The notes beneath the pieces were generated by a model. It made no database searches. It was not told the DNA's origin and saw nothing but the letters and a program-made list of their open reading frames with translations. From positions 14,096-78,095 of IMG/VR virus record IMGVR_UViG_2744054895_000002: a stretch of DNA of 64,000 nucleotides. The stretch is one strand, 5' to 3'. Shown here in pieces: positions 7,440 to 26,598 of the stretch. Both the position numbers and the translations under genes were made by a program. The stretch comes from a virus (Duplodnaviria; Caudoviricetes). The first letter of the stretch is position 1; the number at the start of each line of letters is the position of its first letter.

Positions 7440-7445
7440 ACGGCT

Positions 7446-7865: not shown

Positions 7866-7878
7866 GAGGCGGCTGACG

Positions 7879-9218: not shown

Positions 9219-9289
9219 GAACACGAGACAGCTCAGCCCGTCCTCGCCCGACCGGGACGAGGGCGGGCGACGGGCATCCAGGAGCACTG

Positions 9290-9616: not shown

Positions 9617-9623
9617 AGCCGCT

Positions 9624-10448
9624 ATGCCGTACGAGTGGCCGCCGCTGGTTCCCGGGGACCCTGACGAGATCGCGCGCCGCGTCGCAGCCGTACTCGAGGA
9701 AGCCTGGCAGCGCCTCGCCAGCAAACAGCGCGAAGTGATCGCCAAGTTCGTGGACAACCCACGGACGCCGTACACCTTGGCGACTCTGGAGGAGTTCAAG
9801 CAGTCGATCCGCGAGTTCCGCAAACGAGTGGATCAGGAAGCCCAGCAGTTCGTACAGCGGCAGCTCCCTCACCTGTACGAGGAGGGCGGGCGCGCGGCCG
9901 CCGAGGCCCTGGGCGTGACCTTCACCTGGACGACGTTCCACCGCGACGCCCTCCAGTCGCTCGCGGCAGACTCCTACGCCGACTTCCTGCGCCGTTCCGA
10001 AGAGGCCGAGCGGATGGCAAACCAGTTCTACCGGGCTGCGCGGGAGGCCGCGCGCCGAGAAGTACCGCTGCTCGCAGCGGGCAACCTGACCGCGAAGCAG
10101 GCTGCGAAGAACCTGGCAGACCGACTCGCCGCCAAGCACAAGCTGGCCCACGTCATTTATCGCAACGGGGCGAGAGTCCCGGTCCGCGCCTGGGCCGAGG
10201 CCGCCACGCTCGCAAAGTCGGCCGTCGCCTACAACGCTGGCACTCTCAACCGGTCCCGTCAGGCTGGTGTAACGGTGGTCGAGGTCTTCGACGGCCTCGA
10301 CTGCGGCTGGACGTCCCATCAAGACCCGGACAAGGCCAACCGGACCTTACGCAGCGTGGAGGACGCAGCTGAATGGCCGATCAGCCATCCTCGGTGCCGC
10401 CGCGGCTTCGGACCTCGCCCGGATGCGGCTGAGCAGAAGCTGCTGTGA
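9624..10448 (+). CDS. Minor capsid protein (MuF/gp7-like)
   Basis: C-terminal DGLDC...HPRCRR motif. Confidence 0.75.
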   Translation: MPYEWPPLVPGDPDEIARRVAAVLEEAWQRLASKQREVIAKFVDNPRTPYTLATLEEFKQSIREFRKRVDQEAQQFVQRQLPHLYEEGGRAAAEALGVTFTWTTFHRDALQSLAADSYADFLRRSEEAERMANQFYRAAREAARREVPLLAAGNLTAKQAAKNLADRLAAKHKLAHVIYRNGARVPVRAWAEAATLAKSAVAYNAGTLNRSRQAGVTVVEVFDGLDCGWTSHQDPDKANRTLRSVEDAAEWPISHPRCRRGFGPRPDAAEQKLL

Positions 10449-10646
10449 CGTTCATCGAAGCCGCCAGCGCACATCTCAACGGCGCAAGGAGCCCCAATGA
10501 GCCATCCGTGCACCGCACAGGGTGCGCCTGCTGACCGGAGGGCGGGCGCTGGGGAATGGCCGTCCCGAGGGTCGCGAAGGGTTCCCCGCGCCATGAGGGC
10601 CCTCCTCTGGGGTTACCGGGGGAGGGCTCTCGCCAAGTGGGCTTGG

Positions 10647-10832
10647 TCAGACCTTGTGACCTTTGGCGTACTCCACGAAGGATGCCCAGGGAGCTGGCAG
10701 GAAGGTCAGGCAGCCGCGGTCTCGATCCTTTGAGTCTCGGACCAAGACCACGGACGAGTCGTTGTCAGCTACCTCGACACAACTGTCGGACTTGGTATAT
10801 GAGCTGGTGCGCCACTTCGGTTCTGCTGTCAA
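10647..10832 (-). CDS. DUF397 protein
   Basis: WRTSSY...CVEVA...VRDSKD...W signature. Confidence 0.9.
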   Translation of the reverse strand: MTAEPKWRTSSYTKSDSCVEVADNDSSVVLVRDSKDRDRGCLTFLPAPWASFVEYAKGHKV

Positions 10833-10844
10833 AATTGTGGCCTC

Positions 10845-11699
10845 CTAGTTTTCGGACATGCGGTCATAATGGTGAATTGCGGCAAGGATTAGGTCTCTTG
10901 CGGGCTGGCCATAGACGGCAGACTGTCGATGAAACTCGAATGCCTTGCGGTAAAGATCGATTTCCCTCGGCTGCGTTACGGACATCTCCGCAGAGTACGT
11001 TTCGACCATGACGAGCCGGTCGTCAAACATTGAAAAGCCGTGGCCGAGCCAGAGGGCGAGGGGCGCTGACCGCGGGACGATGCCCAGGCTGAGCCGAGGA
11101 AGCGCCAACACAGCCAACAGTCGGTCGAGCTGTGCCCTCATGACCTCCGAGCCACCGTGGTTCGAGTAGAGAGCCTGCTCGCCAAGGAGCACGTTGAAGA
11201 TACGGTTCCCCTCGTAAAGGTACTTCTGCCGTTCGAGACGTTTCGCCACGGCAGCTTCCATGTCGGCTGGCGTATCGTGGAAGTTCGATACCTGATCGAA
11301 GACGTTCTCGGCGTAGTCGGCAGTCTGAATGGTGCCCCAAATCATGTTGGGCTCCCAAATCCTGAACACCTTGGTCTTACGGTAGAGCGGCAAGGACTTC
11401 TTCTGACGGCTCTCGGCTCCGTCCGCGAGCAGCCGACGCCACTCCATCCATAGCTCATCAATGTGGCGGACTGTCGCGATGAGGTCGCTAGCCTCGGCCT
11501 CGTGCCCGGTCATCTGGCACCAGGTGCGGATGTCGTCCTCGCTGGCGTTCTGCTTGCCGTTTTCGATGCGGGAGACTTTGGATTCCTGCCAACCGGTGGC
11601 AGCGGCGAACGCCCGGCCACTGGTGAACCCCGCATCCTTGCGGAATCCACGCAGCCGGGCGCCCAACGCCTCTCGCGACTCTTGTGCTTGGTTGCTCAC
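10845..11699 (-). CDS. XRE HTH regulator with DUF5753 domain (Scr1/WhiJ-like)
   Basis: LGARLR...SKVSRIENG HTH; QTADYA, MRAQLDRL; adjacent to DUF397. Confidence 0.85.
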   Translation of the reverse strand: MSNQAQESREALGARLRGFRKDAGFTSGRAFAAATGWQESKVSRIENGKQNASEDDIRTWCQMTGHEAEASDLIATVRHIDELWMEWRRLLADGAESRQKKSLPLYRKTKVFRIWEPNMIWGTIQTADYAENVFDQVSNFHDTPADMEAAVAKRLERQKYLYEGNRIFNVLLGEQALYSNHGGSEVMRAQLDRLLAVLALPRLSLGIVPRSAPLALWLGHGFSMFDDRLVMVETYSAEMSVTQPREIDLYRKAFEFHRQSAVYGQPARDLILAAIHHYDRMSEN

Positions 11700-11706
11700 T
11701 GAACGA

Positions 11707-12228
11707 TCAGGGCTTGTACTCGTTGTGTGGGATGGACATGTCCCAGAGCAGATCTCGCACACGGATGCACTCAGCGACAACGGCGGGGCTATCGATGATC
11801 TGAGAGCCCAGGACACGCCCCGAGCTGTCGAAGTGCCCGACAGCCAAGAGCTTGTCGTCGAAGAGCCACCAGTCGTTGCCCTCCACAGGGAACACCAGGC
11901 CCTCCGGCAGATGATGACGAGGGAGCCATCGGATGTCCTCGCCGGCTTCCACGTTGAGGTTGGAGGTTGCGCACTCCCACCGGATGTAAGAGCTGTGCGG
12001 CTCAGTGACGACACGCACCCGGCGCACGGTCTTCCCTGACTCGGTGACGCGCCTCATGAGCTGAGTCCACGGCGCCATGAATGAGTCGTCGGCTGTCCCG
12101 TTGAGCCAGCTCTCATATGGGCCCTCCTCGTTGGGGACTGAGTAGTCGTCCCTCAGCTCCAAGTGGAAGGCGTCGTGCGCGAAGCTCTCAAAGAGCCGGT
12201 TGCGCTCGTCGCTGGAGATCAACTCCAC
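11707..12228 (-). CDS. DUF6879-like protein
   Basis: AFHLELRDDY, RRVRVVTEP..SYIRWE, GEDIRWLPR, DWWLFD. Confidence 0.8.
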   Translation of the reverse strand: MELISSDERNRLFESFAHDAFHLELRDDYSVPNEEGPYESWLNGTADDSFMAPWTQLMRRVTESGKTVRRVRVVTEPHSSYIRWECATSNLNVEAGEDIRWLPRHHLPEGLVFPVEGNDWWLFDDKLLAVGHFDSSGRVLGSQIIDSPAVVAECIRVRDLLWDMSIPHNEYKP

Positions 12229-12607
12229 GCGGTTCCTCCAGTAGCGCGGTGATCGCGGCCTTGGGGACCTCGACCACGGTCTCGTAGTCCGGAATATCCA
12301 TCGCTGCAAGGGTCTCGGGGTCGGTCACCTCCCGGCCTTGCACAACGTACGTCCCTCCGGGAGTGAGGACCATGAGGGGGCTCTCAAGGCGCCTGAACTC
12401 ACCGGATGGCAAGCCGTCCTTCTCCAGGTGGTCGAACAGCTCGGTGGGCACCTCCACGGCCGTTTCACCTTCGGGGATGGTGAGCTGCATCAGCAGGTCA
12501 CTGGCGTAGATCCTCCATCCCTGGACGAGGTAGGTGTCGCGATCCGTGGCGTAGAGAGTTGGGCAGTCCCCCTGCTTGGAGTCCTTACCAAGGAACCGTA
12601 GCTTCAT
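12188..12607 (-). CDS. Conserved hypothetical protein leading the DUF6879 cassette
   Basis: MKLRFLGK..CPTLYAT; internal repeat YLVQG/YVVQG...VEVP; AGGAG RBS. Confidence 0.75.
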   Translation of the reverse strand: MKLRFLGKDSKQGDCPTLYATDRDTYLVQGWRIYASDLLMQLTIPEGETAVEVPTELFDHLEKDGLPSGEFRRLESPLMVLTPGGTYVVQGREVTDPETLAAMDIPDYETVVEVPKAAITALLEEPRGVDLQRRAQPAL

Positions 12608-12789
12608 GGTTGCTCTCCTGTCCGCTGCCTTGCGCTGATTTGCGCGGCATCACGATGGTTGGTGAGGCCTTCCGGTGGCGTCAACCAGCTTCCTGCAAAC
12701 TCGCGCAATCTCCTTGGAGCTTGGCATTGCCGAGGTCTACGGTCGTCTTCACGTCAAGGCCATCCACGGAGAGTGACGAGGGGCCACAC

Positions 12790-13068
12790 ATGGAAAGCGG
12801 ACAGGCGAGGCGAGCGGCAGGCGCCAGGACGAGGCGCAGTCTCGGACTCGGGCACTTGGACCACCCCCTGTTGGGCCGCCTCGTCGTGGATCACGCTCAC
12901 GGTGATCGAGTGGGGGTCATGCGAGCTCTTGCGCCTGACGTGGAGGCGCCCAACCCGAATGCAACGATCCCGGGGGCCGAGGCCCGTGCAGTCGCATGGA
13001 TTGCGCCGGAGTCGGGGGGTGTGGAGTGGACGACCGATCCCAACTCGATTGAGGGAGCCGCGCAATGA
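12790..13068 (+). CDS. Hypothetical protein divergent from XRE cassette
   Basis: WIAPESGGVEWTT motif; RBS upstream. Confidence 0.55.
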   Translation: MESGQARRAAGARTRRSLGLGHLDHPLLGRLVVDHAHGDRVGVMRALAPDVEAPNPNATIPGAEARAVAWIAPESGGVEWTTDPNSIEGAAQ

Positions 13069-13358
13069 GATCTTGGCAGTGTGCGGGGAAGGACCTTAAG
13101 CGGCGACATCAGTTCTATCCGCTGGCGAAGCCCGCTGTGGCCGATGAAGCGCCAATCGGCGCGGCTCCAAGTGTGCTGAACGCGGATGTGCGCGAAGAGC
13201 CCTTCGCCGAGTGGTGGACGGCGTACGGCGGAGAGAGTGACCCTGAGTCGGGAGTGATCTACTTCCCGCCCATCGAATTTGAGCGTTGCCCTTTCGCGTG
13301 TAGCAAATGTGACGGCGAGGAGAATGTGGAGCGCCGCGCATTTGTTGGGTCTATGTAA
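13065..13358 (+). CDS. Hypothetical protein
   Basis: ATGA overlap with previous ORF; CPFAC..C cluster. Confidence 0.45.
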   Translation: MRSWQCAGKDLKRRHQFYPLAKPAVADEAPIGAAPSVLNADVREEPFAEWWTAYGGESDPESGVIYFPPIEFERCPFACSKCDGEENVERRAFVGSM

Positions 13359-13553
13359 CGAGCCGTGATGGGCTACAACAATCGCGACGCGCCCGACGTG
13401 TAGCCGCAGGCAGCGTAGCCGCCTGGGCTCCGTATCTCGGCTCGCTTCAGCTGCCCTATAACCCTCGCCCCTGCCGGATGTACTGAACCTCGGGGCTCCC
13501 CCATCCTCGGATTCGGGGTTCCCGGCAGGGGGGGCACCACAGGAAGGCCCTAA

Positions 13554-13796
13554 GTGCGCTTACTGACCGGATTGTTCGAACCCCGGAGTGGTCCTGTCGA
13601 CCCCGATACCTGCAATCTGTGTTGTGACCTCCGTGAACTTCTTCAAAAGGTCGGCAGGGAAGGCAACACCCGCCACATTTTGAGGGTCATGACTGTCATG
13701 GAGCTGCACGCAAATTTCGGTCATCGAGATGAAATCGTTGTCCGGGGTGCAGGCGCTTACTCGGCTGGAGGCCATCGTCAACGACGACGTACGTGA
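13554..13796 (+). CDS. Small hypothetical protein
   Basis: AGGAAGG RBS; CNLC motif. Confidence 0.45.
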   Translation: MRLLTGLFEPRSGPVDPDTCNLCCDLRELLQKVGREGNTRHILRVMTVMELHANFGHRDEIVVRGAGAYSAGGHRQRRRT

Positions 13797-14114
13797 GGCG
13801 CCCGACCACTGTCCCGTCATGGCCACCTTCAGCCTCTCGCGCCTGCGCCGCGTTCTTGCGCCGGACGCTTGGACGGCCGCATGACCAAGAGACGCCCGCC
13901 CCGGCGAACCGGCTGCTTTCGGCCCGGTTCATCGAGGCGGCTCAAGCCCCGTTCCGGGACAAGGCGCTGACGTGCTCCCGCACGGTCGGCGCCGACCGCC
14001 GGTCCGGTCTGGCCGGGAACCGCTTGGATGGAGTAGCCGGTTGCCTACGCTCCGTCCGGCGCAACCGGGTCATCTGCAACACCACGCGTAACTCAACAAG
14101 AAGGGTGTTAACCG

Positions 14115-14309
14115 ATGAGTGCAAGCACGGTGCAGGACAAGGCCCAGGTGAGGGACATCCCCGAGGTGGTGAGCGGAGCCGTACAGGATCCGTTCGACCT
14201 CGATGTGGACGTCCTGGAGCTGGCCGGCGGGACCGTCCCGCTGATCACGCTGACCGACGACGGCTGCAAGCCCTCGTGCCCGGCCTCCTGCGCCACGAAC
14301 GTGGCCTGA
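14115..14309 (+). CDS. lanA: FxLD-family class I lanthipeptide precursor
   Basis: Leader FDLD motif; core TDDGCKPSCPASCATNVA with 3 Cys and Ser/Thr; directly before LanB. Confidence 0.92.
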   Translation: MSASTVQDKAQVRDIPEVVSGAVQDPFDLDVDVLELAGGTVPLITLTDDGCKPSCPASCATNVA

Positions 14310-14391
14310 CCGTCGCGGCACCTGGTGCTGGTCCGCGCGGAAATACGCGGGCCAGCACCACCCACAGGGACCTCACAGCGACGGGAATCGA

Positions 14392-17300
14392 GTGGTGGGT
14401 AGTAATCAGCGGCTGTACCGGTGCGCCGACACCGTGTTGTTGAGGGCAAGCGCCCAGGCGGACGTGGCGCTGCCGGAGTGGCCCGACATGCCTGTCGATA
14501 CACCTGCGCACGCTGCAGCTTGGACGGCCTGGCTACGGGAAGTCGGGAAGCAGGAAGTAGTCGCCGATGCGATCGAGCAGGCCAGCCCGGGCCTCGCACG
14601 ACAGGTCGATGCCGTGCTTACGGCTGGCGAGGTGAATGTGCGCCAGGTGCGGCGCACCGCGTTGTCGGTCGCCCGGTACGTACAACGACTCACCGGCAGA
14701 AGTACGCCGGCCGGTCTGTTCGCTGGTATCTCCGTAGCATCCTTCGGCTCCGAAGCGGCTGTGCGGTTCGGAACCCGACATCGGCCCGTTGCCAGGGCCG
14801 ACGCCTCGTGGCTGGTGCCTGTCGTCACCGAACTGGAGTCCTCTCGCAGGTTACTCGCCCGGCTGCCGGTGATGGTGAACACCACTGCCTTCGTGCGCGG
14901 TGACCGCCTCGTGGTGCCTCACCCGCCGCCGGACAGTGGGGCCGGCCCGGCTCTGGCAGAGGTGTCCGTCCGCAACACGCAAGCCGTCCGAACGACGGTG
15001 GCACACGCCCAGTCACCCATTCGATTCGACGCCCTCGCCGACAAGCTCGCATCCGAGTTCCCCGCGACACCGGCATCGACCATCGACCAGATGCTCGCAG
15101 GCATGGTCAAGCAACACATCCTCATCACCGCCCTGCACGCACACTCGGGGATCTGTGACGCCTTCGGACACGTCATGGAACAACTGGACATCGCAGGCGC
15201 TGAGGGCATCGCCGAGGTAGCACACCTGGTCAGCAGGCTGCACGAGATCCACAAGATGCTCGACCTCCACAACGAGGACCGTACGCCCTCGGATGCCCGG
15301 ACACTCCGCTCGGCGATGACCGCGCGTATGACGGCTCTGGCGCCAGCCGCGAAACGGCCACTGGCGGTGGATCTCCTGGCGGACTGCTCGCTCGTCCTGC
15401 CGCACCAAGTGGCGAACGAGGCAGAAGCCGCTGCTCACGCGCTTACGCGCTTGAGCTCCTATCCGTCCGGCACCCCAGCCTGGGCGGACTACTTCACGCG
15501 CTTCTTCGCGCGGTACGGGGTCGGCTCGCCGGTGCCACTGTTGGACCTCGTGGACCCCGACGTGGGGCTTGGCCTGCCCGTCGGCTACCTGGGCGGTGAC
15601 CCGGAGCCGCCCGAGTCCGTCTCCGCCCGCCACCGGCGGCTCCTCGCCATGGCACAGGCTGCGGCACTGGACGGGTGCCGCGAAATCGTGCTGGACGAAC
15701 GGCTCGTGGACGAACTCGCCATGGCCGACCCGGACGCGGTTCAGGTTCCTCCTCACCTGGAGCTGTGCTTCCAGCTTCAGGCCCCGTCGCTTGCCGCGCT
15801 GGACCGCGGGGAATTCGATCTGTGCGTAGTCAGCGCATCCCGGGCTGCTGGCACCATGTCCGGCCGCTTCCTCGACCTCCTGGAGCCGCCGGACCGGGAG
15901 CGGGCGACCACCGTGTTCGACCAGTTCGCGGCCACTGACCCCGAGGTGCTGCCGGTGCAGGTCTCCTCCCCGCCGCTTGACCCGAAGAACGCCCACGTCA
16001 CACGGGCCCCTAACCTGCTGCCCGACCTCATCAGTATTGCCGAGCACCGCCCGCCAGACGACCACGTGATCTCTCTGGACGACTTGGCGGTGCAGTGCAC
16101 CAAGGAGCGGCTGTTCCTGGTCTCGCTCTCGCGTGGGCGCCGACTGTCCCCGACGATGCTGCACGCTCTGGATCTGCGGGCCCATACTCCTCCACTGGGG
16201 CGGTTCATCGTCGAGGTGGCCAAGGCGCAGCAGGCGTTGGTCACCGGGTTCGACTGGGGTCCGGCCCGTCACCTGCCGTACCTGCCGCGCCTGCGCTACG
16301 GTCGCACCATCGTGGCCCCCGCCTGCTGGATCCTGGAGTCCAGCGAGCTACCCGGCCGCGATGCCTCATGGGTGGAATGGAGCGAGGCGGTAGCCGAGTG
16401 GCGGGAGCGGCGGGGCCTTCCATTCACTGTCTTCATCACCGAGGGCGACCACCGCCTGAAGCTCGACCTCGACCAGGCCGCCCATCTCCTGTTGCTGCGA
16501 GAGCACCTCGCCACTGCTGAGTCCGCCGTTCTCACCGAGGCCCCGGCAGCCCCCGCCCACGGCTGGTTCGGCGGACGCCCCCATGAGATCGTGACCACGT
16601 TGACAGCCAGGCGAGCGTCAACGCCACCGCTCGCAACGACCGGCCTACGCATGCCAGTCGAGCGCGGTCACGGCCATTTGCCCGGCGCGCCGCCCTGGCT
16701 GCACGCCAAGCTATATGGGCACCCCGAGCGGCTTCCTCACCTCGTGGCCCAGTACCTGCCGGAGCTGTTCGCCGCGTGGGAAGCGCCACCACGGTGGTGG
16801 TTCACGCGATTCCGTGATCCTCAGTGGCACATGCGGTTGCGGATCGCCGTCGCGGACGCGGCCGAGTTCGGCATTGCGGCTCAGCGCATCAGCACATGGG
16901 CCAGCGATCTGCGTCGCCGGGGGTTGCTGAGCGATATGCAGTTCGCGAGCAGCTTTCCGGAGACCGGACGCTGGGGGAGCGGATCGGCGATGGACGCCGC
17001 CGAGAACGTCTTCGCCGCCGACTCCGTCGCCCTGGCCGCCCAGTTCGCAACCCCAAAGCGACCGCACGCGCAAGCCCTGGCCGCCGTCAACTTCGTCTCG
17101 ATCGCGTGCGACTTCACCGGCAGCACCGAGGCTGGCATGGCATGGCTGCTCGACCAGCCCCGTGGTGACGCCTCCCGGCGCCTGGATCGCACGCTGCTCA
17201 AGACCGCCGTTCGCCTGGCCGACCCGGCTGACGGCTGGGCTGCCTTGAAGGCAGCACCGGGTGGCATGAGCATCGCCAATGCTTGGTCCGCCCGCAGTCA

Positions 17301-17493
17301 GGCCCTGGCCGACTACCGCGAGGAGTTGGCCCGTGCGGAGGAGGTGCCGGCGGACTCGGTCCTCGATTCACTCCTGCACGCCCACCACATCCGGGCTGTG
17401 GGCATTGACCGCGACGGTGAGGACACCTGTCGTCGTCTCGCCCGCGCCGCTGCCCTGTCTTGGCGGGCCCGTTGCTCAGGAGAGAGGGGATGA
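14392..17493 (+). CDS. lanB: Lanthipeptide dehydratase LanB
   Basis: 1033 aa; RSTPAGLFAG, SGRF, YLPRLRYG and C-terminal elimination domain (WWFTRF...HMRLR). Confidence 0.93.
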   Translation: MVGSNQRLYRCADTVLLRASAQADVALPEWPDMPVDTPAHAAAWTAWLREVGKQEVVADAIEQASPGLARQVDAVLTAGEVNVRQVRRTALSVARYVQRLTGRSTPAGLFAGISVASFGSEAAVRFGTRHRPVARADASWLVPVVTELESSRRLLARLPVMVNTTAFVRGDRLVVPHPPPDSGAGPALAEVSVRNTQAVRTTVAHAQSPIRFDALADKLASEFPATPASTIDQMLAGMVKQHILITALHAHSGICDAFGHVMEQLDIAGAEGIAEVAHLVSRLHEIHKMLDLHNEDRTPSDARTLRSAMTARMTALAPAAKRPLAVDLLADCSLVLPHQVANEAEAAAHALTRLSSYPSGTPAWADYFTRFFARYGVGSPVPLLDLVDPDVGLGLPVGYLGGDPEPPESVSARHRRLLAMAQAAALDGCREIVLDERLVDELAMADPDAVQVPPHLELCFQLQAPSLAALDRGEFDLCVVSASRAAGTMSGRFLDLLEPPDRERATTVFDQFAATDPEVLPVQVSSPPLDPKNAHVTRAPNLLPDLISIAEHRPPDDHVISLDDLAVQCTKERLFLVSLSRGRRLSPTMLHALDLRAHTPPLGRFIVEVAKAQQALVTGFDWGPARHLPYLPRLRYGRTIVAPACWILESSELPGRDASWVEWSEAVAEWRERRGLPFTVFITEGDHRLKLDLDQAAHLLLLREHLATAESAVLTEAPAAPAHGWFGGRPHEIVTTLTARRASTPPLATTGLRMPVERGHGHLPGAPPWLHAKLYGHPERLPHLVAQYLPELFAAWEAPPRWWFTRFRDPQWHMRLRIAVADAAEFGIAAQRISTWASDLRRRGLLSDMQFASSFPETGRWGSGSAMDAAENVFAADSVALAAQFATPKRPHAQALAAVNFVSIACDFTGSTEAGMAWLLDQPRGDASRRLDRTLLKTAVRLADPADGWAALKAAPGGMSIANAWSARSQALADYREELARAEEVPADSVLDSLLHAHHIRAVGIDRDGEDTCRRLARAAALSWRARCSGERG

Positions 17494-18749
17494 CCATGAA
17501 CCGGGAAGCGGCCGAACTGACCGCCGCCGCTGTCGCCGACCGACTGGCCAATCCGTCCGCCGCCCAGAAGCTCGGTCTTCCGCAGGGCTGGCACCGACAG
17601 TCTCTCGCCCACGGTGCGGTAGGGGTCGCGTTGTTGCACGTTGAGCGTGCCCGCGCGGGCCTGGGGCCCTGGCAGCGCGCCCACGACTGGCTCGCCTACG
17701 CCGCCGCGGGCCAGGTCGAGTCCTGGGAGGACAGCCATCTCCACTACGGCGTTCCGGCGGTCGCCTTCGCCCTGAACGCCGCAGCCGACCGGCCAGGCCA
17801 GTACGCCCGTGCCCTGGACACCTTGGATCGCAACATCGCGAAGACGACGCGGCGCCGCCTGGAACGTGCCCACGCCCGGATGAACGCTGGCGTCGCGCGT
17901 TCAGCTCTCGCCGAGTTCGACAGCATTCGGGGACTGTCCGGTATCGGCGCGTACCTGTTGAGACGCCAAGCGGACACCGACCTCTTGCGCGACGTCCTCA
18001 CCTACCTGGTGCGCCTGACCGAGCCGGTGAAAGAGGACGGCGAGTTGTTGCCCGGTTGGTGGAGCGATCTGGCCCCCTCCGGCCAGCCCTCACCGGATTA
18101 CCCGGCAGGACACGCCAACAACGGCATGGCCCACGGCATCGCCGGTCCGCTCGCTCTGCTCGCCATCGCGGCCCGCCACGGCATCTTCGTGAGCGGCCAC
18201 CTCAACGCGATCCAACGGATCTGTGCCTGGCTCGATCGCTGGCAGCAGGAGAGCGCGGCCGGTCCCTGGTGGCCCGCCCTGGTCACACGCGCCCAGTACC
18301 GCGGCGAGCAGCCGCTCGCCGCCGAGCCGTCCAGACCCTCCTGGTGCTACGGCACTGCGGGGCACGCCCGGTCTCAGCAGCTCGCTGCCCTGGCGGTCGG
18401 CGACACCTCACGCCAGCAGGCAGCGGAAGGCGCGCTGGCTAGGGCACTCACCAATCCCGAGCAGCTCGCCGCGACGACTGACAGAAGCCTGTGCCACGGG
18501 TACGCCGGCATGGCCCACATCGCCGCGCAGGCAGCCGCCGACGCGCTCACCCCTGACCTCGCTGTTTGTATCCCCCAGCTCCTCGACGTGATCGGTACCG
18601 ACCCGGACGTGGTGGCCATTTCCCTCACGCAGGCCGTTGGCGGTGACATCGGGCTTCTGGAAGGGGGAGCCGGAGTCGCGCTGGCTCTCCTCGCGGTCGC
18701 AACCGGTGCTCCGCTCTCCGGCTGGGACGCATTCCTCCTGATCAACTGA
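17490..18749 (+). CDS. lanC: Lanthionine cyclase LanC
   Basis: GMAHGIAG, WCYG, LCHG zinc-ligand motifs, GLLEG. Confidence 0.93.
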   Translation: MTMNREAAELTAAAVADRLANPSAAQKLGLPQGWHRQSLAHGAVGVALLHVERARAGLGPWQRAHDWLAYAAAGQVESWEDSHLHYGVPAVAFALNAAADRPGQYARALDTLDRNIAKTTRRRLERAHARMNAGVARSALAEFDSIRGLSGIGAYLLRRQADTDLLRDVLTYLVRLTEPVKEDGELLPGWWSDLAPSGQPSPDYPAGHANNGMAHGIAGPLALLAIAARHGIFVSGHLNAIQRICAWLDRWQQESAAGPWWPALVTRAQYRGEQPLAAEPSRPSWCYGTAGHARSQQLAALAVGDTSRQQAAEGALARALTNPEQLAATTDRSLCHGYAGMAHIAAQAAADALTPDLAVCIPQLLDVIGTDPDVVAISLTQAVGGDIGLLEGGAGVALALLAVATGAPLSGWDAFLLIN

Positions 18750-18769
18750 CGACTCCGGAAGGCAGCGCC

Positions 18770-20884
18770 ATGCAGACCACGCAGGAGTGGCCGCAGTACG
18801 GCATCGAGTGCGCCGATCGGCACGCCGCCGAGCAGGTGGCAGCCGAACGCCTCAACGCCGAGCTGGCGACCTTGGTCGCCGACGGCGCGATCACCTCTTG
18901 GTGGTTCATCCGCAAGCCGCCCGGCCTGCGGCTCCGCTACCTCCCTGCCGACGGCCGCGCCCACCGACAGCTCAAGGCCCTCTTCGATGCCCTGACTGCT
19001 GAGGGGCGGATCATCCGATGGACCCCAGGCATCTACGAACCGGAAGTCCACGCCTTCGGAGGACGCGCCGGTATGGATGTCGCACACCACCTGTTCCAGC
19101 ACGACAGCCGCAACATCCTCGACTATCTGGCCCGGTCGCAATCTGCCGCCGGAGCCGTACTCGGGCGGCGCGAGCTGGGAATCCTGCTGTTCAGCGTGCT
19201 CATGCGGGGCGCCAGGCTGGACTGGTACGAGCAGGGCGACGTATGGGCCCGGGTTGCCGACGAGCGACCAGCCACGAGTTCGGGGCCTGTCTCTGAGCGG
19301 CTGAGGAAGGCCGTACATCGGTTGATGACCGTCGACGCCGGGCCGACCAGCAGTTTGGTCAACGGAGGGCCACTAGCGGCGCTCACCGACTGGGTCACAT
19401 GGTTCGAGCACGCCGGGCAGCAACTCGTGGATCTTGACCGACGCGGAGTCCTGGAGCGCGGACTCCGCGCGGTCATCGCCCACCACGTGATCTTCCAATG
19501 GAACCGTCTGGGGCTGTCGGCCGCAGACCAAAGCACCTTGTCAACCCTGGCAAAAGAGATCGTCATGGGAACGAGGGAAGGCGCCGCGTCGGCGCCGGAG
19601 ACCAGCACCGCAAGCACTACCTTCAACGAAGTGAGCACTCAGATGACCGATGACACCCGTACCGCCGAAAGCCTGCGCGAGGAGTTGGCAGACCAGCTTC
19701 GCCAACAGGGAACGGTGACTACTGACTCGGTGGACGCGGCGGTACGGACCGTGCCCCGTGACGTTTTCGTGCGCCAGTTCAAGCCCGATGCCTCCCTGGA
19801 AGAGTCGTACGCCGACCAGCCGGTCCACACGAAGTTCAACGACTCAGGCGAGTCCATCAGCGCGGTGTCCCAGCCGACGGTGAACGCGCTGATGCTCGAA
19901 CTCATCAATGCCAGGAAGGGCCACAAGATCGAGGAGGCGGGCGCGGGCAGCGGCCTGTTCGCCTCCTACTTGGGGCATCTGGTCGGTCCCGAGGGACACG
20001 TCATCACGCTCGACGTCGACCAGGACCTTGTCGACGGGGCCCGCGCTGCCGTAGAGAAGGCCGGGGTGAGCAACGTGAGCGTCATCCTCGGCGACGGTGC
20101 GGTCGGCCACCCCGACGGAGCCCCCTACGACCGGATCGTGGCGACTGTCGGTGCCCACGGCATCCCCCAGGCGTGGCTGGACCAGCTCGCCCCCGACGGC
20201 CGCCTCGTCGTGCCGATGCGACTGCGCGGCAGCGTCTCGCGCGCCGTCGCCTTCGAGCGTGACGAAACCGGCCGCTGGCGAAGCGTCCGCAGCGAGATGT
20301 GCACGTTCATGCCCCTGCGCGCAGGAGTGGCCGACGACCCTCGCCGCGTCGTCTCGCTGACCGACGACGGTTCCGTCAAGCTTCAGTTCAACGGAGAGCA
20401 GCAGGCGGACGAGGCTGCGCTGCAGGGAGTGCTCGAACGCCCGGGCACCGAGACATGGTCGGGCGTGACGTTCCGGGGGCCGGAGTCCCCGGAGTTCATG
20501 TGGCTGTGGCTGGCCTGCCGTCTGGACAACGCCTTGAGCCGGATGGAAGTCGATCGTCAGTCTCCCGCTGCCAGCAAGCTCGACCCCATGTTCCGCCCCA
20601 TGGCCGTGGCAGAGCAGGGCGACCTCGCTTACCTGACCCTGCGCAAAGCTGACCTGGACCAGGAGGGCAACCAACTCTACGAGGCGGGAGCTATTGGCCA
20701 CGGGCCTGCGGGCAAGGAGCTTGCCGACCGGGTGGCCGAGGAGATGGCCGTCTGGCACCGCAGCTTCCGGGGGCGCGACGTGACATTTGAGATTCAGCCG
20801 CTCAGCGCCGCCCCGCTCCACTCGAAGCCTGGTCGCTTCGCCTTCGATAACCCGATCAACCGGATCGTCATCGAGTGGCAGTGA
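18770..20884 (+). CDS. fxlM: FxLD-system methyltransferase: Lant_dehydr_C-like N-terminus fused to PIMT-like domain
   Basis: N-term WWFIRK, YEPEVHAFGG, HHVIFQWNRLG; C-term SQP, EAGAGSG, YDRIVAT, GRLVVP. Confidence 0.88.
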   Translation: MQTTQEWPQYGIECADRHAAEQVAAERLNAELATLVADGAITSWWFIRKPPGLRLRYLPADGRAHRQLKALFDALTAEGRIIRWTPGIYEPEVHAFGGRAGMDVAHHLFQHDSRNILDYLARSQSAAGAVLGRRELGILLFSVLMRGARLDWYEQGDVWARVADERPATSSGPVSERLRKAVHRLMTVDAGPTSSLVNGGPLAALTDWVTWFEHAGQQLVDLDRRGVLERGLRAVIAHHVIFQWNRLGLSAADQSTLSTLAKEIVMGTREGAASAPETSTASTTFNEVSTQMTDDTRTAESLREELADQLRQQGTVTTDSVDAAVRTVPRDVFVRQFKPDASLEESYADQPVHTKFNDSGESISAVSQPTVNALMLELINARKGHKIEEAGAGSGLFASYLGHLVGPEGHVITLDVDQDLVDGARAAVEKAGVSNVSVILGDGAVGHPDGAPYDRIVATVGAHGIPQAWLDQLAPDGRLVVPMRLRGSVSRAVAFERDETGRWRSVRSEMCTFMPLRAGVADDPRRVVSLTDDGSVKLQFNGEQQADEAALQGVLERPGTETWSGVTFRGPESPEFMWLWLACRLDNALSRMEVDRQSPAASKLDPMFRPMAVAEQGDLAYLTLRKADLDQEGNQLYEAGAIGHGPAGKELADRVAEEMAVWHRSFRGRDVTFEIQPLSAAPLHSKPGRFAFDNPINRIVIEWQ

Positions 20885-20885
20885 G

Positions 20886-22019
20886 ATGGATGCCAGCCAG
20901 ATAACGCGAAGGTTCCCTCTGGTCGCTCGCCCTCGCCCCGCATGCACGCCACTCGACGAACGGGTTCGCGAGATCGGCGCCCTCGCGCGAGAGGCAGAAC
21001 ACGAAGGGCGCATGGCACTGGCCGCCACGGCGTTCAACAAAGCCGCGCTGCTGGCCAGCGACTGCGACCTGCCCGAGCTGGCTCGCGCTCTGTGCTGGCG
21101 ACATTCCGAGGTGTACCTGCGCACCCAGCCACTGGGTGCGCAGGTCGCCCGGTACGGTCTGGAGCCCTTGGTCAACCTCGCCCGGTTGCTGATCCGCTCC
21201 GGCGACGGCGAAGCCGCTTACGTCCTCCTCGACTCCATGTTCCAAGCAGTGAAATCCGGCTCGGACACCGTCATCGATGGGCGAACTGTGTCCTTCGAGC
21301 ACATCACCGGATCAGACGAAAACCGCCGTGAGCTGTACCAGTGGCTGTGGGCCGTACTGCTCGCCGACGGCGCCCGCGCTCTGGCCAGCGCGGGCCGGTG
21401 GACGGATGCACTGGCCCAGCTCAAGCGCCACAAGGGGATTGGCAAGCGGATGTTCGACGGTCGCCAAGTCGCGGTGATCGCTGACCTCACGGCAGACAAC
21501 GCATTCGGGGCCATGACCCTCCTGGCCGACACCGTCCCGGGTGAGCCCTGGGAGAACGCCGTCACGGCTTGCCTGATGGTGATGTCCCGACGGCAGGCTG
21601 GCTTACCGGTCGATCGCGAACTTGCCGAGTTGCTGGACTGCTACCAGCGACTTGACCGCCCGGCGGAGTTGGCCGTCTTCCACACCCGGTTGGGCCTCTC
21701 TGTCCTCGACATCGCCGATGGCGTTGGCGAGGTGGTTGCCCATCGCATCGCGACGAACCTCATTGGTCAGACGGTGGCGACATCAGATGGATACGCGGCC
21801 CGTGACGTGCTGGCCCACGTGGGCTGCTCCGCACTCCTGACGAGTGCCCAAGCCCAACAACTCGGCCACGCGGTGGAAGCCTGTGCCCTCGGTAGAGGCC
21901 ACATTCCCGTAGAAATGCGAACCGACTTGATGGCCGCGCTCGATCTCAGTGAAGGAGTGCTCAGGCAAACGTTGGCTGCAACACCCCCGTGCGGCCGGCC
22001 CCCGGCCTTCGACCGGTGA
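20886..22019 (+). CDS. Helical accessory protein of the FxLD cluster
   Basis: Starts 1 nt after fxlM stop; RRFPLVARPRPAC N-terminus. Confidence 0.7.
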   Translation: MDASQITRRFPLVARPRPACTPLDERVREIGALAREAEHEGRMALAATAFNKAALLASDCDLPELARALCWRHSEVYLRTQPLGAQVARYGLEPLVNLARLLIRSGDGEAAYVLLDSMFQAVKSGSDTVIDGRTVSFEHITGSDENRRELYQWLWAVLLADGARALASAGRWTDALAQLKRHKGIGKRMFDGRQVAVIADLTADNAFGAMTLLADTVPGEPWENAVTACLMVMSRRQAGLPVDRELAELLDCYQRLDRPAELAVFHTRLGLSVLDIADGVGEVVAHRIATNLIGQTVATSDGYAARDVLAHVGCSALLTSAQAQQLGHAVEACALGRGHIPVEMRTDLMAALDLSEGVLRQTLAATPPCGRPPAFDR

Positions 22020-22052
22020 ATCTACAAGCGGCGCAACGTGGTGGAACGGTGC
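21993..22052 (+). pseudogene. IS5-family transposase C-terminal remnant
   Basis: Translates GRPPAFDR*IYKRRNVVERC, like the actinobacterial IS5 DDE C-terminal motif. Confidence 0.65.
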
Positions 22053-22269
22053 TCGCAACTGACGGGCCAGGTAGTCGAGTTCGCCGTAGGGTAGAGCGAC
22101 GCAGTCCGGAGCTCGTGATCAGGCCAACTGACGCAACTCTGCCCAGTGCGTGCGGCTACGGCCTTATCGTGCGGGTACGTGGATGAAGACGAATTCGGCC
22201 GCGGGCTCGCCGAGCTGGAGATAAGGCCCGATCCGAGACCGGCACGAGCAGAATAGGAAGGGGAATTGC

Positions 22270-22919
22270 GTGTCCGCTCCGCCGTCGCTCGGGCCTGTCG
22301 CACGCTTGCGTGAACACAACGAACGGGTCCTGAGGCTGCGTCAGGACATCCGGGAGGTGACCCTTCGGCAGCGTCTGATGTACGGCTTCGGTGCTGGTGT
22401 CGTGCTCTGCGTCCTCGGCGTCGCCGTCCCTACAGCACTGACGTGGCGGCGCTTCAACATGGCACCCATCAACACGGTGCTCGTTCTCCTGGCCGTCGTA
22501 TCTGTTGTTGGGTTCATTGCGTCCTCATCGATGGAAACGATCAGACGCGCAGGCTCACGGCCTGACACTTTTGGGGAACGGCTGACTCGCCAGGAGCTGG
22601 AGCTGGATCTCGAAATCGCTATTGAGAACAGGCTCATCGACGCGACCCCGCTAGACATCCCCATCCGCAACAGGCAGTTCGCCTAGGCATCACCGGGTAC
22701 TACAAGTTCCGCGAACGCAGCTTCAACCTGCAGCAGACCGCGGACTCGATCGAAGAGCACGCCAACGCTTTCCACCTCGGCCTGCCGCCCTACGACAGCA
22801 CCGACCCTGCGGCCAACCTGGCGCTCCTGACTGCCAAGGTCGAAACCCTCCGAGTGGAACAAAGACGCCGAGAACAACAACTTGACCAACCGCCGGAAAC
22901 TCGCGACCAGTCCGGCTGA
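22270..22919 (+). pseudogene. SLATT/DUF4231-like membrane protein with internal deletion
   Basis: 2-TM N-part stops at 22686; another frame continues GITGYYKFRERSFNLQQTADSIEE...EQRRREQQLDQ to TGA at 22919. Confidence 0.6.
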
Positions 22920-23294
22920 TCCTTAGCCTCAGCAGAGCCCAGGGAAGGCCGCCACACGCTGTCGGTCAGCCCGGCAGCTTGTCGGTGTTGTCACTTGGCG
23001 GCACAGCCCCGTGAGCCTTCGGCAGCGGCTGCCCAGGTGACGGGCCCCGGAGTGAAAGCGTCCTGCCCGACCGGCCGTGTTTGAACGGTGTCGACGGTCA
23101 CGAAGCCGCTCGGCCCGCCGTACAGGCGGGCGATGGGACGGCTGAGCCTAGTGCGGGCCGACGCCAGGTGCCCGTGGCATTGAACCTCGAGCCGTAACAC
23201 GACTGATCACGGTCGCGTGGCTGGCCCGCCAGACGCTGCTCAGTTTCGGCGTTTCTGTGGCGGCGCTGATGCTTGATGACCATGCTGGTCAGCT

Positions 23295-24167
23295 ATGGGT
23301 AATGAGCCGTCGCCGGAGAGATCATCCTCGTCAGTGTCGAGGCAAGTTGGTCGTTTGTTTGGCGTCTCCGTGGGTGTCGGAGCGGCGATGACCGCGGGGA
23401 TTGCATGGGCCGCAAACCGGTTTCCCGAAGGACCTTCGCCCCAGGGCCTTGCAGCCTTACTGGGGGCAGGAGCCGCGGTTGTGGGCGCCGGGCTCGCGGT
23501 TGTGGCCATTTGGCAGGGGCGCCAGGCTGACCGAGCCATCGATGCCGGTCGTGAACGTGTTCGTGAGGCCGAGCGCGGGGTGGAAGGTGCTCTGGCTGCT
23601 CCCTCCGGATCGGCAACCACCGTGGTGGTGACCAACGGGGGCCCTGCGGTGACCGGAGAGGCGGAGGTGACAAACGATCGCCGAGATCTGGCACTGGCCC
23701 GGTTGTGGTCACTGACTCATCGACGGTTGGACCTTTATCACGAGATTGCCACGAACCAGGCACGGCGTTCGTTCGTGAGCGCACAGATCTCAATGGTGAT
23801 CGGCTTTGCGCTGCTAGTGCTGTTTGTCGTCCTGGCCTTGAACGTGAGCAGCACCACCGGCGCAATTGTGACGGGCGGTCTTGGGGCGGTCTCGGCAGCT
23901 CTGGCCGGATTCATCAGCAAGACTTTTGTGAAGTCCCAGCAGTCTGCGGCTGATCACCTCAAGGCATACTTCGATCAGCCGCTGGAATTCTCCCGCTACC
24001 TGGCAGCAGAGCGGTTGCTGGCCGACGCGGGTCTGCCCGATGAGAAGCGGGCTGATGTTGTCTCCGTGTTGGTTCAAACGATCGCGGCCGGGCCCGGGCC
24101 TGACGCTCCCTTGGGTTCGAATGGACTGGCGCAACAGTTGCAAGACCTGCTGCCCGGTCAGCCATAG
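23295..24167 (+). CDS. TRADD-N-associated membrane-domain-like protein
   Basis: YHEIATNQARRSF followed by two TM helices; extra N-terminal TMs. Confidence 0.6.
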   Translation: MGNEPSPERSSSSVSRQVGRLFGVSVGVGAAMTAGIAWAANRFPEGPSPQGLAALLGAGAAVVGAGLAVVAIWQGRQADRAIDAGRERVREAERGVEGALAAPSGSATTVVVTNGGPAVTGEAEVTNDRRDLALARLWSLTHRRLDLYHEIATNQARRSFVSAQISMVIGFALLVLFVVLALNVSSTTGAIVTGGLGAVSAALAGFISKTFVKSQQSAADHLKAYFDQPLEFSRYLAAERLLADAGLPDEKRADVVSVLVQTIAAGPGPDAPLGSNGLAQQLQDLLPGQP

Positions 24168-24297
24168 CCAGGGTCCCCCAGTACTCCGTGCCACTCAAAC
24201 TTCGATGCCACAAACCTGGTGATCATCAAGGTTCGATGGCACAGGATAGGGGCACAGAGAATCCGAACTGCCTGGTTCCGCGGCTAGGCTCGAACAC

Positions 24298-24729
24298 ATG
24301 AGCGTGCCTACTGAAGGGCTGACTCTGGGGGCCGTCAGCGCGATCGTCGAGAAGAAGATCCTTACCAACAAGATCCGGATCTATCGGCCTGGCGAGCCGG
24401 TGTTCAACCCGGATACCGGACAATACGAGCCTGGCCCACCCGTCACCATCTACGAAGGCTCGGGTGCGCTCTTCCCCGCGGGCGGCCCATCTGTTGTTCT
24501 GCACCTCGCGGGACAGGCATACGTGGATGACACCCCGTCCCGGTACCGTCTCCTGACGCCGTTGTCGGCCCCAGTCGCCTCCCGCGAGGACACCGTCGCC
24601 GTCATCGAGGCCGAGGATGAAGCGGCCATCGGCCGAACGTGGCGAGTGCTCGACGTCGGGGAGACCTCCACGCTGAGCATCGTCCGCACCACGTGGGTGG
24701 ACCAGAACACCCAGACGGCGGGGGAGTGA
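24298..24729 (+). CDS. DUF6093-like head closure protein (copy 1)
   Basis: IRIYRPG..FNPDTG..IYEG pattern; neck-region synteny. Confidence 0.65.
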   Translation: MSVPTEGLTLGAVSAIVEKKILTNKIRIYRPGEPVFNPDTGQYEPGPPVTIYEGSGALFPAGGPSVVLHLAGQAYVDDTPSRYRLLTPLSAPVASREDTVAVIEAEDEAAIGRTWRVLDVGETSTLSIVRTTWVDQNTQTAGE

Positions 24730-24730
24730 A

Positions 24731-25156
24731 GTGACCACAGCGATCGATCCGGAGGAAGTCCGCAAGGAACTGGAGGCCAAGCTCCTCCTGGACACGGTTC
24801 GGGTGACGCGCCCTATCGGGACGCCTGTGCTTGACCCGGCCACTGGGCTCCTTGGGGAGGTGCCCGCCGACGTAATCTACGAAGGGCCGGGTGCCGTGTT
24901 GTCCGGCCACGGCCAGGTCACAGCGGAGGGCATCGTGGGCAAGCAGTGGTTGGACGACACGGTGTCCTGGTACCGGCTCCTGACTCCGCTGAGTGCACCG
25001 GTACCGGCCCGGTATGACCGCGTCGAGGTGACCGTTGCGCATTCAGGGAGTGCGGCAACCGGCGGACGGGTGTGGCAGGTGCTGGACCCGGCTGAAGCCT
25101 CTACCGTCGAACTGGTCCGTGTCACTCGACTGGACGAGATCACACCGCCGTCGTGA
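24731..25156 (+). CDS. DUF6093-like head closure protein (copy 2)
   Basis: Paralog of previous gene (IYEG.GA, YRLLTPLSAPV, W.VLD). Confidence 0.65.
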   Translation: MTTAIDPEEVRKELEAKLLLDTVRVTRPIGTPVLDPATGLLGEVPADVIYEGPGAVLSGHGQVTAEGIVGKQWLDDTVSWYRLLTPLSAPVPARYDRVEVTVAHSGSAATGGRVWQVLDPAEASTVELVRVTRLDEITPPS

Positions 25157-25196
25157 GGCGAATCGGAGTTTCCGAGAATCGTCCTACGCTCGACGT

Positions 25197-25601
25197 ATGG
25201 AGATCACGGACACTCCGCCCGCCGACATGCAGAAGGTAAGGATCACGGCAGACGGCAGTAAGGCGTCGATACAGATAGGCGGAATCGACTACTCGCGCGT
25301 CGTCTCCGGCTACACGATCCACCAACAGGCTGGACAGGAACCCGACTTGGTTATCCAGCTCGCCAAGGGACGCAACAGCCCCGACTTCGACGGCTACGCC
25401 CGGGTCGCCATCGGCGTCCCATACGAGCCGGGCCCGGCGGCGGCCCATTTCCTGTCGGCCATCGACGCGAGCCTGCTGGAGAAGGCGGCACTCGCCCGCC
25501 CCGACCTCGACGGCGGCCCGCACGGATTCACAAAGGCTGTACTGGCACAGCTCCAGCAGTGGGCGCGGGGGGAGTTCGACCGAGCCCAGGAGACGAGCTG
25601 A
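25197..25601 (+). CDS. Hypothetical phage protein
   Basis: Stop overlaps next start; phage-like codon use. Confidence 0.55.
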   Translation: MEITDTPPADMQKVRITADGSKASIQIGGIDYSRVVSGYTIHQQAGQEPDLVIQLAKGRNSPDFDGYARVAIGVPYEPGPAAAHFLSAIDASLLEKAALARPDLDGGPHGFTKAVLAQLQQWARGEFDRAQETS

Positions 25602-26032
25602 TGGCATCCCCGCAGAACCCTCACCTCAATGCGCACCCGCTGGCGGGGGCGTACTCGAACGCTCCGCAAATCGCGGCGCGGCTGAACGCCCGCGCGGCAG
25701 CCGCGCTGCCTGCTGTGGCCAGCGTCGTCCAGCACTACGCCATGCTGCTGGAGACGAGGATCAAGGCCAACGCAAGCGGCAGGCCGGGACCGAACGCGCC
25801 GACCGGCGACTACCGGCGTTCGTGGACACACGAGTTCATCACCAGCGGCATGACCGTCGAGGCGGTCGTCGGCACCAACAAGCCTCAGAGCAGGCGCTTG
25901 GAGTACGGCTTCGTCGGCGCCGACAGCCTCGGGCGGATCTACAACCAGCCGCCGTTTCCGCATGTTGGACCGGCCGTCGAGGAGATCCGCCCTGCCTTCC
26001 TGGCCGCAGTCGGAGCGGCGGTGGGCGGCTGA
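25601..26032 (+). CDS. HK97 gp10-like neck/tail-completion protein
   Basis: TGDYRRS, LEYG, PFPHVGPA motifs. Confidence 0.75.
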   Translation: MASPQNPHLNAHPLAGAYSNAPQIAARLNARAAAALPAVASVVQHYAMLLETRIKANASGRPGPNAPTGDYRRSWTHEFITSGMTVEAVVGTNKPQSRRLEYGFVGADSLGRIYNQPPFPHVGPAVEEIRPAFLAAVGAAVGG

Positions 26033-26463: not shown

Positions 26464-26598
26464 CAGCGCGCCCACCTCACCGCGGAGGCCCATCGCGGAC
26501 GCCCGGCCACTCGGTACGGGCTGACTCCCAGCTTGATCCATTGGGGACGGGCCTGCCGTATTCCGGAGCCATCAGCGTCCCCGGAGAGTGAGAGTCGC

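Follow-up and report, generated by a model that had tools for sequence, protein, structure and literature searches.

The 64,000-nucleotide stretch analysed here (the window) corresponds to bases 14096-78095 of a single 78,095-bp IMG/VR provirus record (IMGVR_UViG_2744054895_000002), and carries at positions 14115-22019 a set of five lan genes predicted to encode a class I lanthipeptide precursor and its modifying enzymes. All five lie on the + strand, intact and tightly packed, and their profile matches and leader and core motifs bear out the FxLD lanthipeptide cluster that a preliminary description of this DNA had placed there. The surrounding element is, by its gene content, a Streptomyces prophage of the temperate siphophage type; coordinates are those of the window unless a related locus (L and a number) is named. 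The cluster comprises the following features:

14115-14309, + strand: lanA, FxLD-type precursor of 64 residues (TIGR04363 'FxLD family lanthipeptide', 39.9 bits against a cut-off of 30)
14324-14359, + strand: 14-bp stem-loop between lanA and lanB, from RNA folding
14392-17493, + strand: lanB, class I dehydratase with glutamylation and glutamate-elimination domains (PF04738, PF14028)
17490-18749, + strand: lanC, lanthionine cyclase (PF05147 LANC_like, positions 2-350 of 350, E 3.3e-46)
18770-20884, + strand: lanDE, of the CoiS_A/LvnDE type, 704 residues, with PF14028 and PF01135 fused
20886-22019, + strand: lanH, of the CoiH/LvnF family, 377 residues, assigned by alignment of homologues

The lanA translation, MSASTVQDKAQVRDIPEVVSGAVQDPFDLDVDVLELAGGTVPLITLTDDGCKPSCPASCATNVA, contains an FDLD leader motif, followed by a core that fits the pattern TxDxCxxxCxxxC and includes a Thr-Asp-Asp-Gly-Cys stretch. 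Within LanB, the Lant_dehydr_N profile (PF04738) is matched over positions 2-649 of 649 (E 3e-215) and the Lant_dehydr_C profile (PF14028) over 1-253 of 255 (E 1.9e-37), and LanC retains the zinc-ligand motifs WCYG and CHG. The likely start of lanC is the ATG at 17490, which overlaps the lanB stop codon as ATGA. Intergenic spacings are 82 nt (lanA-lanB), -4 nt (lanB-lanC), 20 nt (lanC-lanDE) and 1 nt (lanDE-lanH). The stem-loop between lanA and lanB could be an attenuator or a processing site; folding of 14300-14400 gives a minimum free energy of -49.8 kcal/mol (z = -2.0), a weak departure from chance in that 7 of 200 shuffled sequences fold as well. The operon runs in the same direction as the late genes and is preceded by about 750 bp of non-coding or relic sequence. 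A scan of the cargo island around it for promoters and terminators returned counts equal to the shuffled expectation, an uninformative outcome for a high-GC actinomycete.

Examination of the last two genes changes how they should be read. LanDE carries a second glutamyl-lyase domain (PF14028) at residues 7-262 and a PCMT domain (PF01135) at residues 303-517, and scores 420.6 bits against TIGR04364 'methyltransferase, FxLD system', for which the cut-off is 320. The methyltransferase had been described as an OlvS-type enzyme; since it is fused to the second glutamyl-lyase domain rather than standing alone, as in the OlvA/OlvS_A type, it belongs instead to the CoiS_A type. The fifth gene, previously an unassigned accessory, falls into the CoiH/LanH family, whose characterised member forms methyllanthionine sulfoxide. 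It had been read from an open reading frame that opens at 20787, and although the gene itself stands, alignment of 30 homologues moves its start to the ATG at 20886 (M34 of that frame), one nucleotide after the lanDE stop codon. LanH has at least 968 homologues of about 370 residues each, the nearest named one being from Streptomyces asiaticus (86% identity); since the window's own LanH is recorded on an 11.1-Mb contig, the host is taken to be a Streptomyces with a large genome. The 30-sequence alignment shows an invariant Asp at position 59, Asn at 97 and Arg at 100, numbered from the corrected Met. A comparison of LanH with the sequences in the PDB returned no matches.

Family membership and proposed chemistry

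Shomar et al. (bioRxiv 10.1101/2024.06.26.600839) and Chen, Zhu and van der Donk (bioRxiv 10.64898/2026.08.26.747419) describe the family to which such clusters belong. The former report more than 2000 actinobacterial class I clusters with LanB, LanC, PF14028 and PF01135 proteins (often fused) and a hypothetical protein, and find the TxDxCxxxCxxxC motif in 57% of the cores. Protection of Streptomyces from phages was shown for five of these clusters. Neither spent media nor extracts had activity, the phages adsorbed as before, their late transcription was lowered, and the members tested showed no fitness cost. In their tree of class I LanC proteins the authors distinguish a 'defensive clade'. 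ABC transporters lie near only 18.3% of the clusters, which are commoner on prophages and plasmids than other class I clusters are (Shomar et al.). The family was renamed lanthivirins in the journal version of that work (Cell Host Microbe 2026, as cited by Chen et al.). According to Chen et al., CoiH/LanH/LvnF enzymes act on the first methyllanthionine, which they convert to a sulfoxide, CoiH requires its residues Asp59, Asn97, Arg100 and Leu332, and Thr-Asp-Asp-Gly-Cys forms the A ring in the substrates tested; they also tested LydH from Streptomyces lydicus, and the S. lydicus homologue of LanH is 65% identical to the window protein. Three of the four essential CoiH residue numbers recur in LanH as D59, N97 and R100, a correspondence of numbers rather than of a direct alignment with CoiH.

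On every feature that we compared, from profile matches to motifs, the window cluster matches this coi-like lanthiphage/lanthivirin family. LanH-family genes are present in 87 of 401 sampled Streptomyces species genomes, and a pattern scan of IMG/VR with the fusion protein, a method that finds close relatives only, gave no match; lan clusters did turn up in two IMG/VR proviruses reached by way of the flanking genes. We do not regard the type of cluster as new: the cluster type, its anti-phage role, the lack of an exporter and the enrichment on prophages are all published.

By analogy with the coi and olv enzymes, LanB would glutamylate Ser and Thr residues of the precursor and eliminate the glutamate, and the extra glutamyl-lyase domain of LanDE might give rise to an alternative dehydrobutyrine isomer at selected Thr residues. 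LanC would form as many as three thioether rings, one of them an A ring across the Thr-Asp-Asp-Gly-Cys stretch, where the methyltransferase domain of LanDE would methylate the second Asp to yield an aspartimide or isoaspartate and LanH would oxidise the methyllanthionine sulfur to the sulfoxide. If expressed in the lysogen, the product would be expected, from the behaviour of tested family members, to block the late transcription of superinfecting phages, so that host and prophage alike are protected.

Where the product acts depends on whether it can leave the cell. A six-frame search of the whole 78,095-bp record found no match to ABC_tran, Peptidase_S8 or Peptidase_C39, and control genomes were positive; the cluster thus departs from nisin-like secreted lantibiotics, with the proviso that LanI-type genes were not specifically searched, so that for LanFEG and LanI we can say that none is recognisable in the record. 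The earlier statement that no exporter, peptidase or immunity gene is recognised accordingly holds for the exporter and for S8 and C39 peptidases, but an immunity gene is possible among the several island open reading frames that have no family match. With neither an exporter nor a leader protease found, the product is most likely retained in the lysogen's cytoplasm.

The cargo island and its prophage

The lan operon is part of a larger insertion within the head-neck region of the prophage, whose features are as follows:

3586-5433: portal
6595-7296: scaffold
7879-8934: major capsid protein
9459-10448, + strand: minor head protein, the conserved left flank of the cargo slot (phrog_37388, E 4e-106; phrog_4611/581 'minor head protein' families)
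10427-24278: variable cargo island (about 13.85 kb) flanked by the minor-head gene and the first DUF6093 gene, with edges set by blastn
10845-12014, - strand: XRE-family helix-turn-helix regulator, start uncertain (partial match to the NCBIfam Sco1979 family, E 8e-25, residues 114-317)
13750-13860, + strand: relic of the C-terminus of an endonuclease/exonuclease/phosphatase-family gene, found by tblastn
22270-22686, + strand: open reading frame of 138 residues, uncertain as a real gene, with no Pfam, PHROG, NCBIfam or PADLOC match
23295-24167, + strand: two-transmembrane SLATT/TRADD-N-associated membrane-domain protein (PF20712, E 7.5e-7, 29.6 bits against a cut-off of 24.3)
24298-25156, + strand: two tandem DUF6093 genes, the conserved right flank (PF19586, E 1e-26 and 7e-24; phrog_13779)
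after the DUF6093 genes and before the major tail protein: Neck1-like gene
26533-27096: major tail protein
between the major tail protein and the endolysin: tape measure protein of 1423 residues, and minor tail proteins
37918-38793: endolysin

When positions 9000-26000 of the window were compared by blastn with all fetched loci, the similarity to relatives ended at 10424-10426 and resumed at 24226-24307. Both edges are sharp, which defines the 13.85-kb island. The preliminary description had set the cluster between minor capsid and head-closure genes, and this slot is correct, but the cluster does not directly abut either flank, with about 3.7 kb of island genes upstream and 2.3 kb downstream. 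The DUF6093 genes are presumed, from position as the sole basis, to encode a head-tail connector; a comparison of them with PDB sequences returned noise and no meaningful match.

The 37-codon relic is 70% identical over 37 residues to residues 268-304 of an intact 314-residue gene in L059 (L059:423-1367), one of the related prophages whose islands keep the gene whole, with a nucleotide identity of 82.5% to L005, L007, L012, L014 and L031, and on this resemblance shows that cargo at the slot has turned over. The SLATT protein, for which the top Atlas match (0.96) belongs to the same family, has a 72%-identical copy in L043 that sits beside a very different lan cluster (lanB 34% identical), and therefore looks like an independent cargo module. 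A 26%-identical counterpart of the XRE regulator occupies the same place in L005 and L007.

The provirus has open integrase, terminase, portal, capsid, tail, lysis and replication genes, as a temperate tailed phage should. The record, with a CheckV completeness of 86 and a GC content of 62-70%, begins at the integrase stop codon and has ends without repeats; its first genes encode a tyrosine integrase, then ParB-like and methyltransferase proteins, and after these a large terminase of 695 residues. Genes for replication and recombination continue as far as about 53 kb of the window, and past about 54 kb the genes resemble transposon and host genes. To the right of the prophage, 57145-61713 holds transposon-like genes (rve integrase core, TniQ domain) with a mycothiol S-transferase gene ahead of them. 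At the other end, a serine-recombinase-like open reading frame (L001:2009-3034) adjoins the tyrosine integrase; it matches only the Recombinase and zinc-ribbon domains, and because no resolvase catalytic domain is reported it may be truncated. The interval from the large terminase to the portal contains, on the - strand at 860-1891, a gene for an Mrr-type (type IV-like) restriction endonuclease, a 42%-identical copy of which occupies the same place in L008; this interval looks like a second cargo site of the phage. A search of the window found no tRNA genes, megablast of 3586-14000 against phage records gave no match, and no sequencing run contained half or more of the words sampled from the stretch, nor was any RNA run listed for it.

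The same slot in related prophages

Among IMG/VR proviruses, the minor-head gene is shared by nine at 83-90% identity and the DUF6093 gene by ten at 73-94%, with two further DUF6093 matches at 43-44%. Two proviruses of 68 kb have major capsid proteins 97-99% identical to that of the window and, at the same site, a lan cluster with two precursors whose LanB is only 52-53% identical. A DUF6093 search of species-representative genomes yielded 49 Streptomyces and Streptantibioticus loci, which we scored as lan-bearing if at least two of lanB, lanC, lanDE and lanH lay within 10 kb upstream in the same orientation. By this measure 22 of the 49 carry a lan cluster, with lan identities of 34-68% to the window cluster and DUF6093 identities of 63-94%; the precursors from these lan loci have FDLD-type leaders throughout, joined to several core types. 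The lan-bearing loci come from many Streptomyces species, Streptomyces lydicamycinicus TP-A0598 being a named carrier. At least four of six downstream structural genes are kept in 38 of the 49 loci, 17 of them lan-bearing, and the other 11 lack most of these genes, five of them retaining the lan cluster.

The empty sites in related prophages that had been suggested as a check do exist: L022 and L070, both distant relatives, have the flanking genes only about 0.8-1 kb apart, and in phage ZL12 small contiguous genes take up the 2.6 kb that separate the capsid gene from the DUF6093 gene. In nine members for which the island was measured, it spans 9.4-31.6 kb. We considered a constant cargo size, set by a packaging limit, and rejected it, since five of the nine islands fall within 13.0-14.4 kb but the full range is far wider.

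Loci without lan genes carry other small gene sets. A Pfam scan of this cargo covered 134 open reading frames from 23 of 27 loci (L035, L051, L064, L070 and three L068 frames excluded) and revealed the following sets, of biosynthetic appearance:

L024, L034, L039, L062 and L065: EPSP-synthase-like gene, hexapeptide transferase and GT4, with or without an acyl-CoA dehydrogenase or aldolase
L036, L042 (also with a transglutaminase-like gene) and L069: asparagine-synthase-like gene and ABC transporter, the pattern of a lasso-peptide cluster
L045, L058, L059 and L060: TauD, UDP-sugar dehydrogenase and glycosyltransferase
L050, L060 and L063: radical-SAM genes
L054, also L019: thymidylate-synthase-like gene, reductase and methyltransferase

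PADLOC, run on 133 non-lan cargo frames, recognised mostly generic domains (ABC ATPase, methyltransferase, radical-SAM core), the exceptions being L063, with a PD-T4-6-like kinase, and L010, with a caspase domain; so little recognition indicates that the non-lan cargo is not made of known defence systems. In one IMG/VR relative the slot holds a caspase-WD40 protein of 1063 residues.

Two of these loci deserve separate mention. L069 lies at 5.50-5.52 Mb on the chromosome of Streptomyces venezuelae ATCC 10712, a model strain convenient for induction tests, and has a lasso-peptide-like island of 13.1 kb with asparagine-synthase-like, M20 peptidase and ABC transporter genes. In Streptomyces triticiradicis (L095:14508-14750, L050:2-8294), a member of the same lineage, two radical-SAM/SPASM genes and sugar-modifying genes, in place of lanB and lanC, come after the gene for an FxLD-type precursor whose leader is FDLD and whose core is of the TDDNC type, and no LanB is found in the whole genome at E 1e-10. 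This precursor is either an orphan left by cassette replacement or the substrate of a different maturation route. The match to the minor-head gene in the same strain falls into two parts with about 2.6 kb between them (L095:7860-10744), including an open reading frame of 451 residues, possibly as the result of an insertion into the gene.

The slot also bears on how such clusters are counted. Five genomes have their provirus divided over two IMG/VR records (L003/L015, L004/L019, L009/L020, L010/L017 and L011/L013), the left-hand one stopping 15-6,520 bp past the minor-head gene and the right-hand one beginning 0-8,240 bp ahead of the DUF6093 gene; evidently the provirus caller dropped much or all of the island as non-viral. 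Because provirus callers cut the island out in this way, phage-borne biosynthetic clusters are probably under-counted in surveys.

Alternative readings and known systems

Taken together, these features make it likely that the cluster in the window is an intact, coi-like member of the lanthiphage/lanthivirin family of class I lanthipeptide clusters and is cargo of a head-neck recombination hotspot in a temperate Streptomyces siphophage, through whose virions it may be transferred. A phage-borne, intracellular defence peptide, the interpretation offered at the outset, is supported by the family gene set and core motif, the intact genes, the missing exporter and protease, the prophage setting and the recurrent slot. 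Several observations nevertheless weigh against this interpretation. A tblastn search with LanB against 50,697 phage records, a collection that may omit the window's own record, gave no match, and in the same collection the lineage has no close cultured or isolated phage, the nearest being ZL12 (45.6% identity in the major capsid protein), so that the lineage is only presumed to be inducible. Five of the 22 lan-bearing loci are decayed remnants that have lost most of their downstream structural genes. The closest relative of the cluster among the 401 sampled Streptomyces genomes is itself a truncated lanC'-lanDE-lanH remnant (L093:14016-17874, on the G162 chromosome), reduced to the final 207 codons of lanC, the greater part of lanDE, and lanH, at 91% DNA identity over 3.85 kb (LanH 84%); no phage genes occur within 35 kb of it, indicating that such clusters persist outside functional phages as well. 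Self-sensitivity is a separate question. All 15 escaper phages of Shomar et al. were mutated in a phage GNAT gene, and a Pfam search of the record found no match to Acetyltransf_1 GNAT, although that search may miss such a gene, since the authors' GNAT resembles no described enzyme; the absence would be faintly in keeping with a prophage that is insensitive to its own product.

The point about remnants can be pressed further, to the view that the prophage is decaying and non-inducible and that the cluster is a chromosomal island kept by the host rather than moved in virions. A CheckV completeness short of 100, a record cut at the integrase where attachment sites cannot be checked, the serine-recombinase-like frame with its two matched domains beside that integrase, the 11 related loci that have shed most structural genes (five with the cluster kept) and the phage-free remnant nearest to the cluster are all compatible with such decay. 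Yet the terminase, portal, scaffold, capsid, tail, tape measure, endolysin and replication genes are open and full-length relative to their profiles, and prophages in other genomes share the capsid proteins at 95-99% identity, which speaks for a phage backbone that has recently spread by horizontal transfer; we consider decay an unlikely account.

Less likely again is an exported antibacterial lanthipeptide that the phage carries as a weapon, with export and leader removal supplied by host genes elsewhere. Most characterised class I lanthipeptides are secreted antibiotics, and the 78 kb inspected are a small part of a host chromosome of about 11 Mb. Remote proteases are known for RiPPs, or ribosomally synthesised and post-translationally modified peptides (Chen et al.), and an ABC transporter is included in the clusters of lineage members L036, L041, L042, L056 and L069. 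The window record, however, has no ABC transporter, no LanP-type or C39 peptidase and no recognisable LanFEG or LanI, and according to Shomar et al. lanDE and lanH are rare in non-defensive class I clusters, and the tested family members were inactive in spent medium and carried no fitness cost. It is because of the missing exporter and protease, together with these family-level data, that we favour an intracellular product protecting the lysogen. A role of the peptide in the phage's own cycle (late transcription, the lysis-lysogeny decision or lytic growth) rather than in exclusion would fit an operon that lies inside the late structural operon and is co-oriented with it, so that lytic read-through is possible, as it would fit the action of family members on phage late transcription (Shomar et al.) and the XRE-type regulators in the window island and in L005, L007, L044 and L062. 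Against this stands the unrelated cargo in more than half of the lineage, with an empty slot in distant relatives, from which it follows that the phage can complete its cycle without the cluster; family members on chromosomes, moreover, function in the absence of a prophage (Shomar et al.). We hold this role to be highly improbable.

With the cluster thus read as lysogen-protecting cargo, and as one more in a family of over 2000 described clusters, its context is worth more than the cluster itself. What appears to be new, on the comparison of loci, is the bounded slot, its recurrence, and the other biosynthetic clusters that share it; the literature available gave no account of the phage lineage, the slot or the co-occurring clusters, though the Cell Host Microbe 2026 version of Shomar et al. 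or its supplements may hold one. We tentatively suggest that the lineage may act as a shuttle for small biosynthetic clusters, with one slot, interchangeable cargo of 9-32 kb and several lanthivirin types in about 45% of its members. If lanthivirins sit in the slot to protect the lysogen, the other unexplained slot clusters may likewise be chemical anti-phage defences, which would open a guilt-by-association route to new anti-phage natural products and nominates several uncharacterised clusters. The recurrent and precisely bounded location also lends support to the view that chemical defence is carried from one Streptomyces species to another by temperate phages, and members with the same backbone and different cargo, no cargo or decayed structural genes provide natural comparisons for experiments.

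Fixed slots of this kind, in which interchangeable cargo between conserved genes protects the lysogen, are known from P2/P4-like enterobacterial phages and their satellites. Those hotspots hold protein systems of one to three genes, whereas here the cargo is biosynthetic, comprises 8-30 kb and many genes, and lies in the structural module of an actinobacterial siphophage. SPbeta-like prophages carry sublancin-type modified-peptide clusters that include export and immunity genes and kill competitors. The window cluster resembles these in residing on a temperate phage but has no recognised export or immunity genes, and its family acts inside the producer. Such prophage clusters are cited, as Dragos et al. 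2021, in the survey of Sharma et al. 2023 (Sci Rep, PMC10023795), which likewise flags as candidates small class I lanthipeptide biosynthetic gene clusters in predicted Streptomyces prophages; it counts prophage clusters in only 13 of 2112 genomes and, in the portion of the text available, does not give the phage lineage, insertion site or cluster subtype.

Among lanthipeptide systems, olv of Streptomyces olivaceus (OlvA, OlvS_A) shares with the window cluster the FxLD-type class I character and an isoaspartyl-type O-methyltransferase acting on a first-ring Asp; as described in the preprints, OlvS_A has no glutamyl-lyase domain and the olv clade no syn-lyase, in contrast to the fused lyase and lanH gene found here. 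The closest counterpart is coi of Streptomyces coelicolor A3(2), also named lanthiphage_Sco, which, compared by gene type and order without alignment of the Coi sequences, has the same five types in the same order (CoiA-CoiB-CoiC-CoiS_A-CoiH). It has likewise a fused glutamyl-lyase/O-methyltransferase, an FDLD-type leader, the Thr-Asp-Asp-Gly-Cys A-ring stretch and a LanH-family gene with D59, N97 and R100, and it too lacks an exporter and a protease. The two differ in precursor number, with two (Shomar et al.) or three (Chen et al.) reported for coi and one in the window, and in setting: coi adjoins a conservon, whereas the window cluster lies inside the structural module of a prophage.

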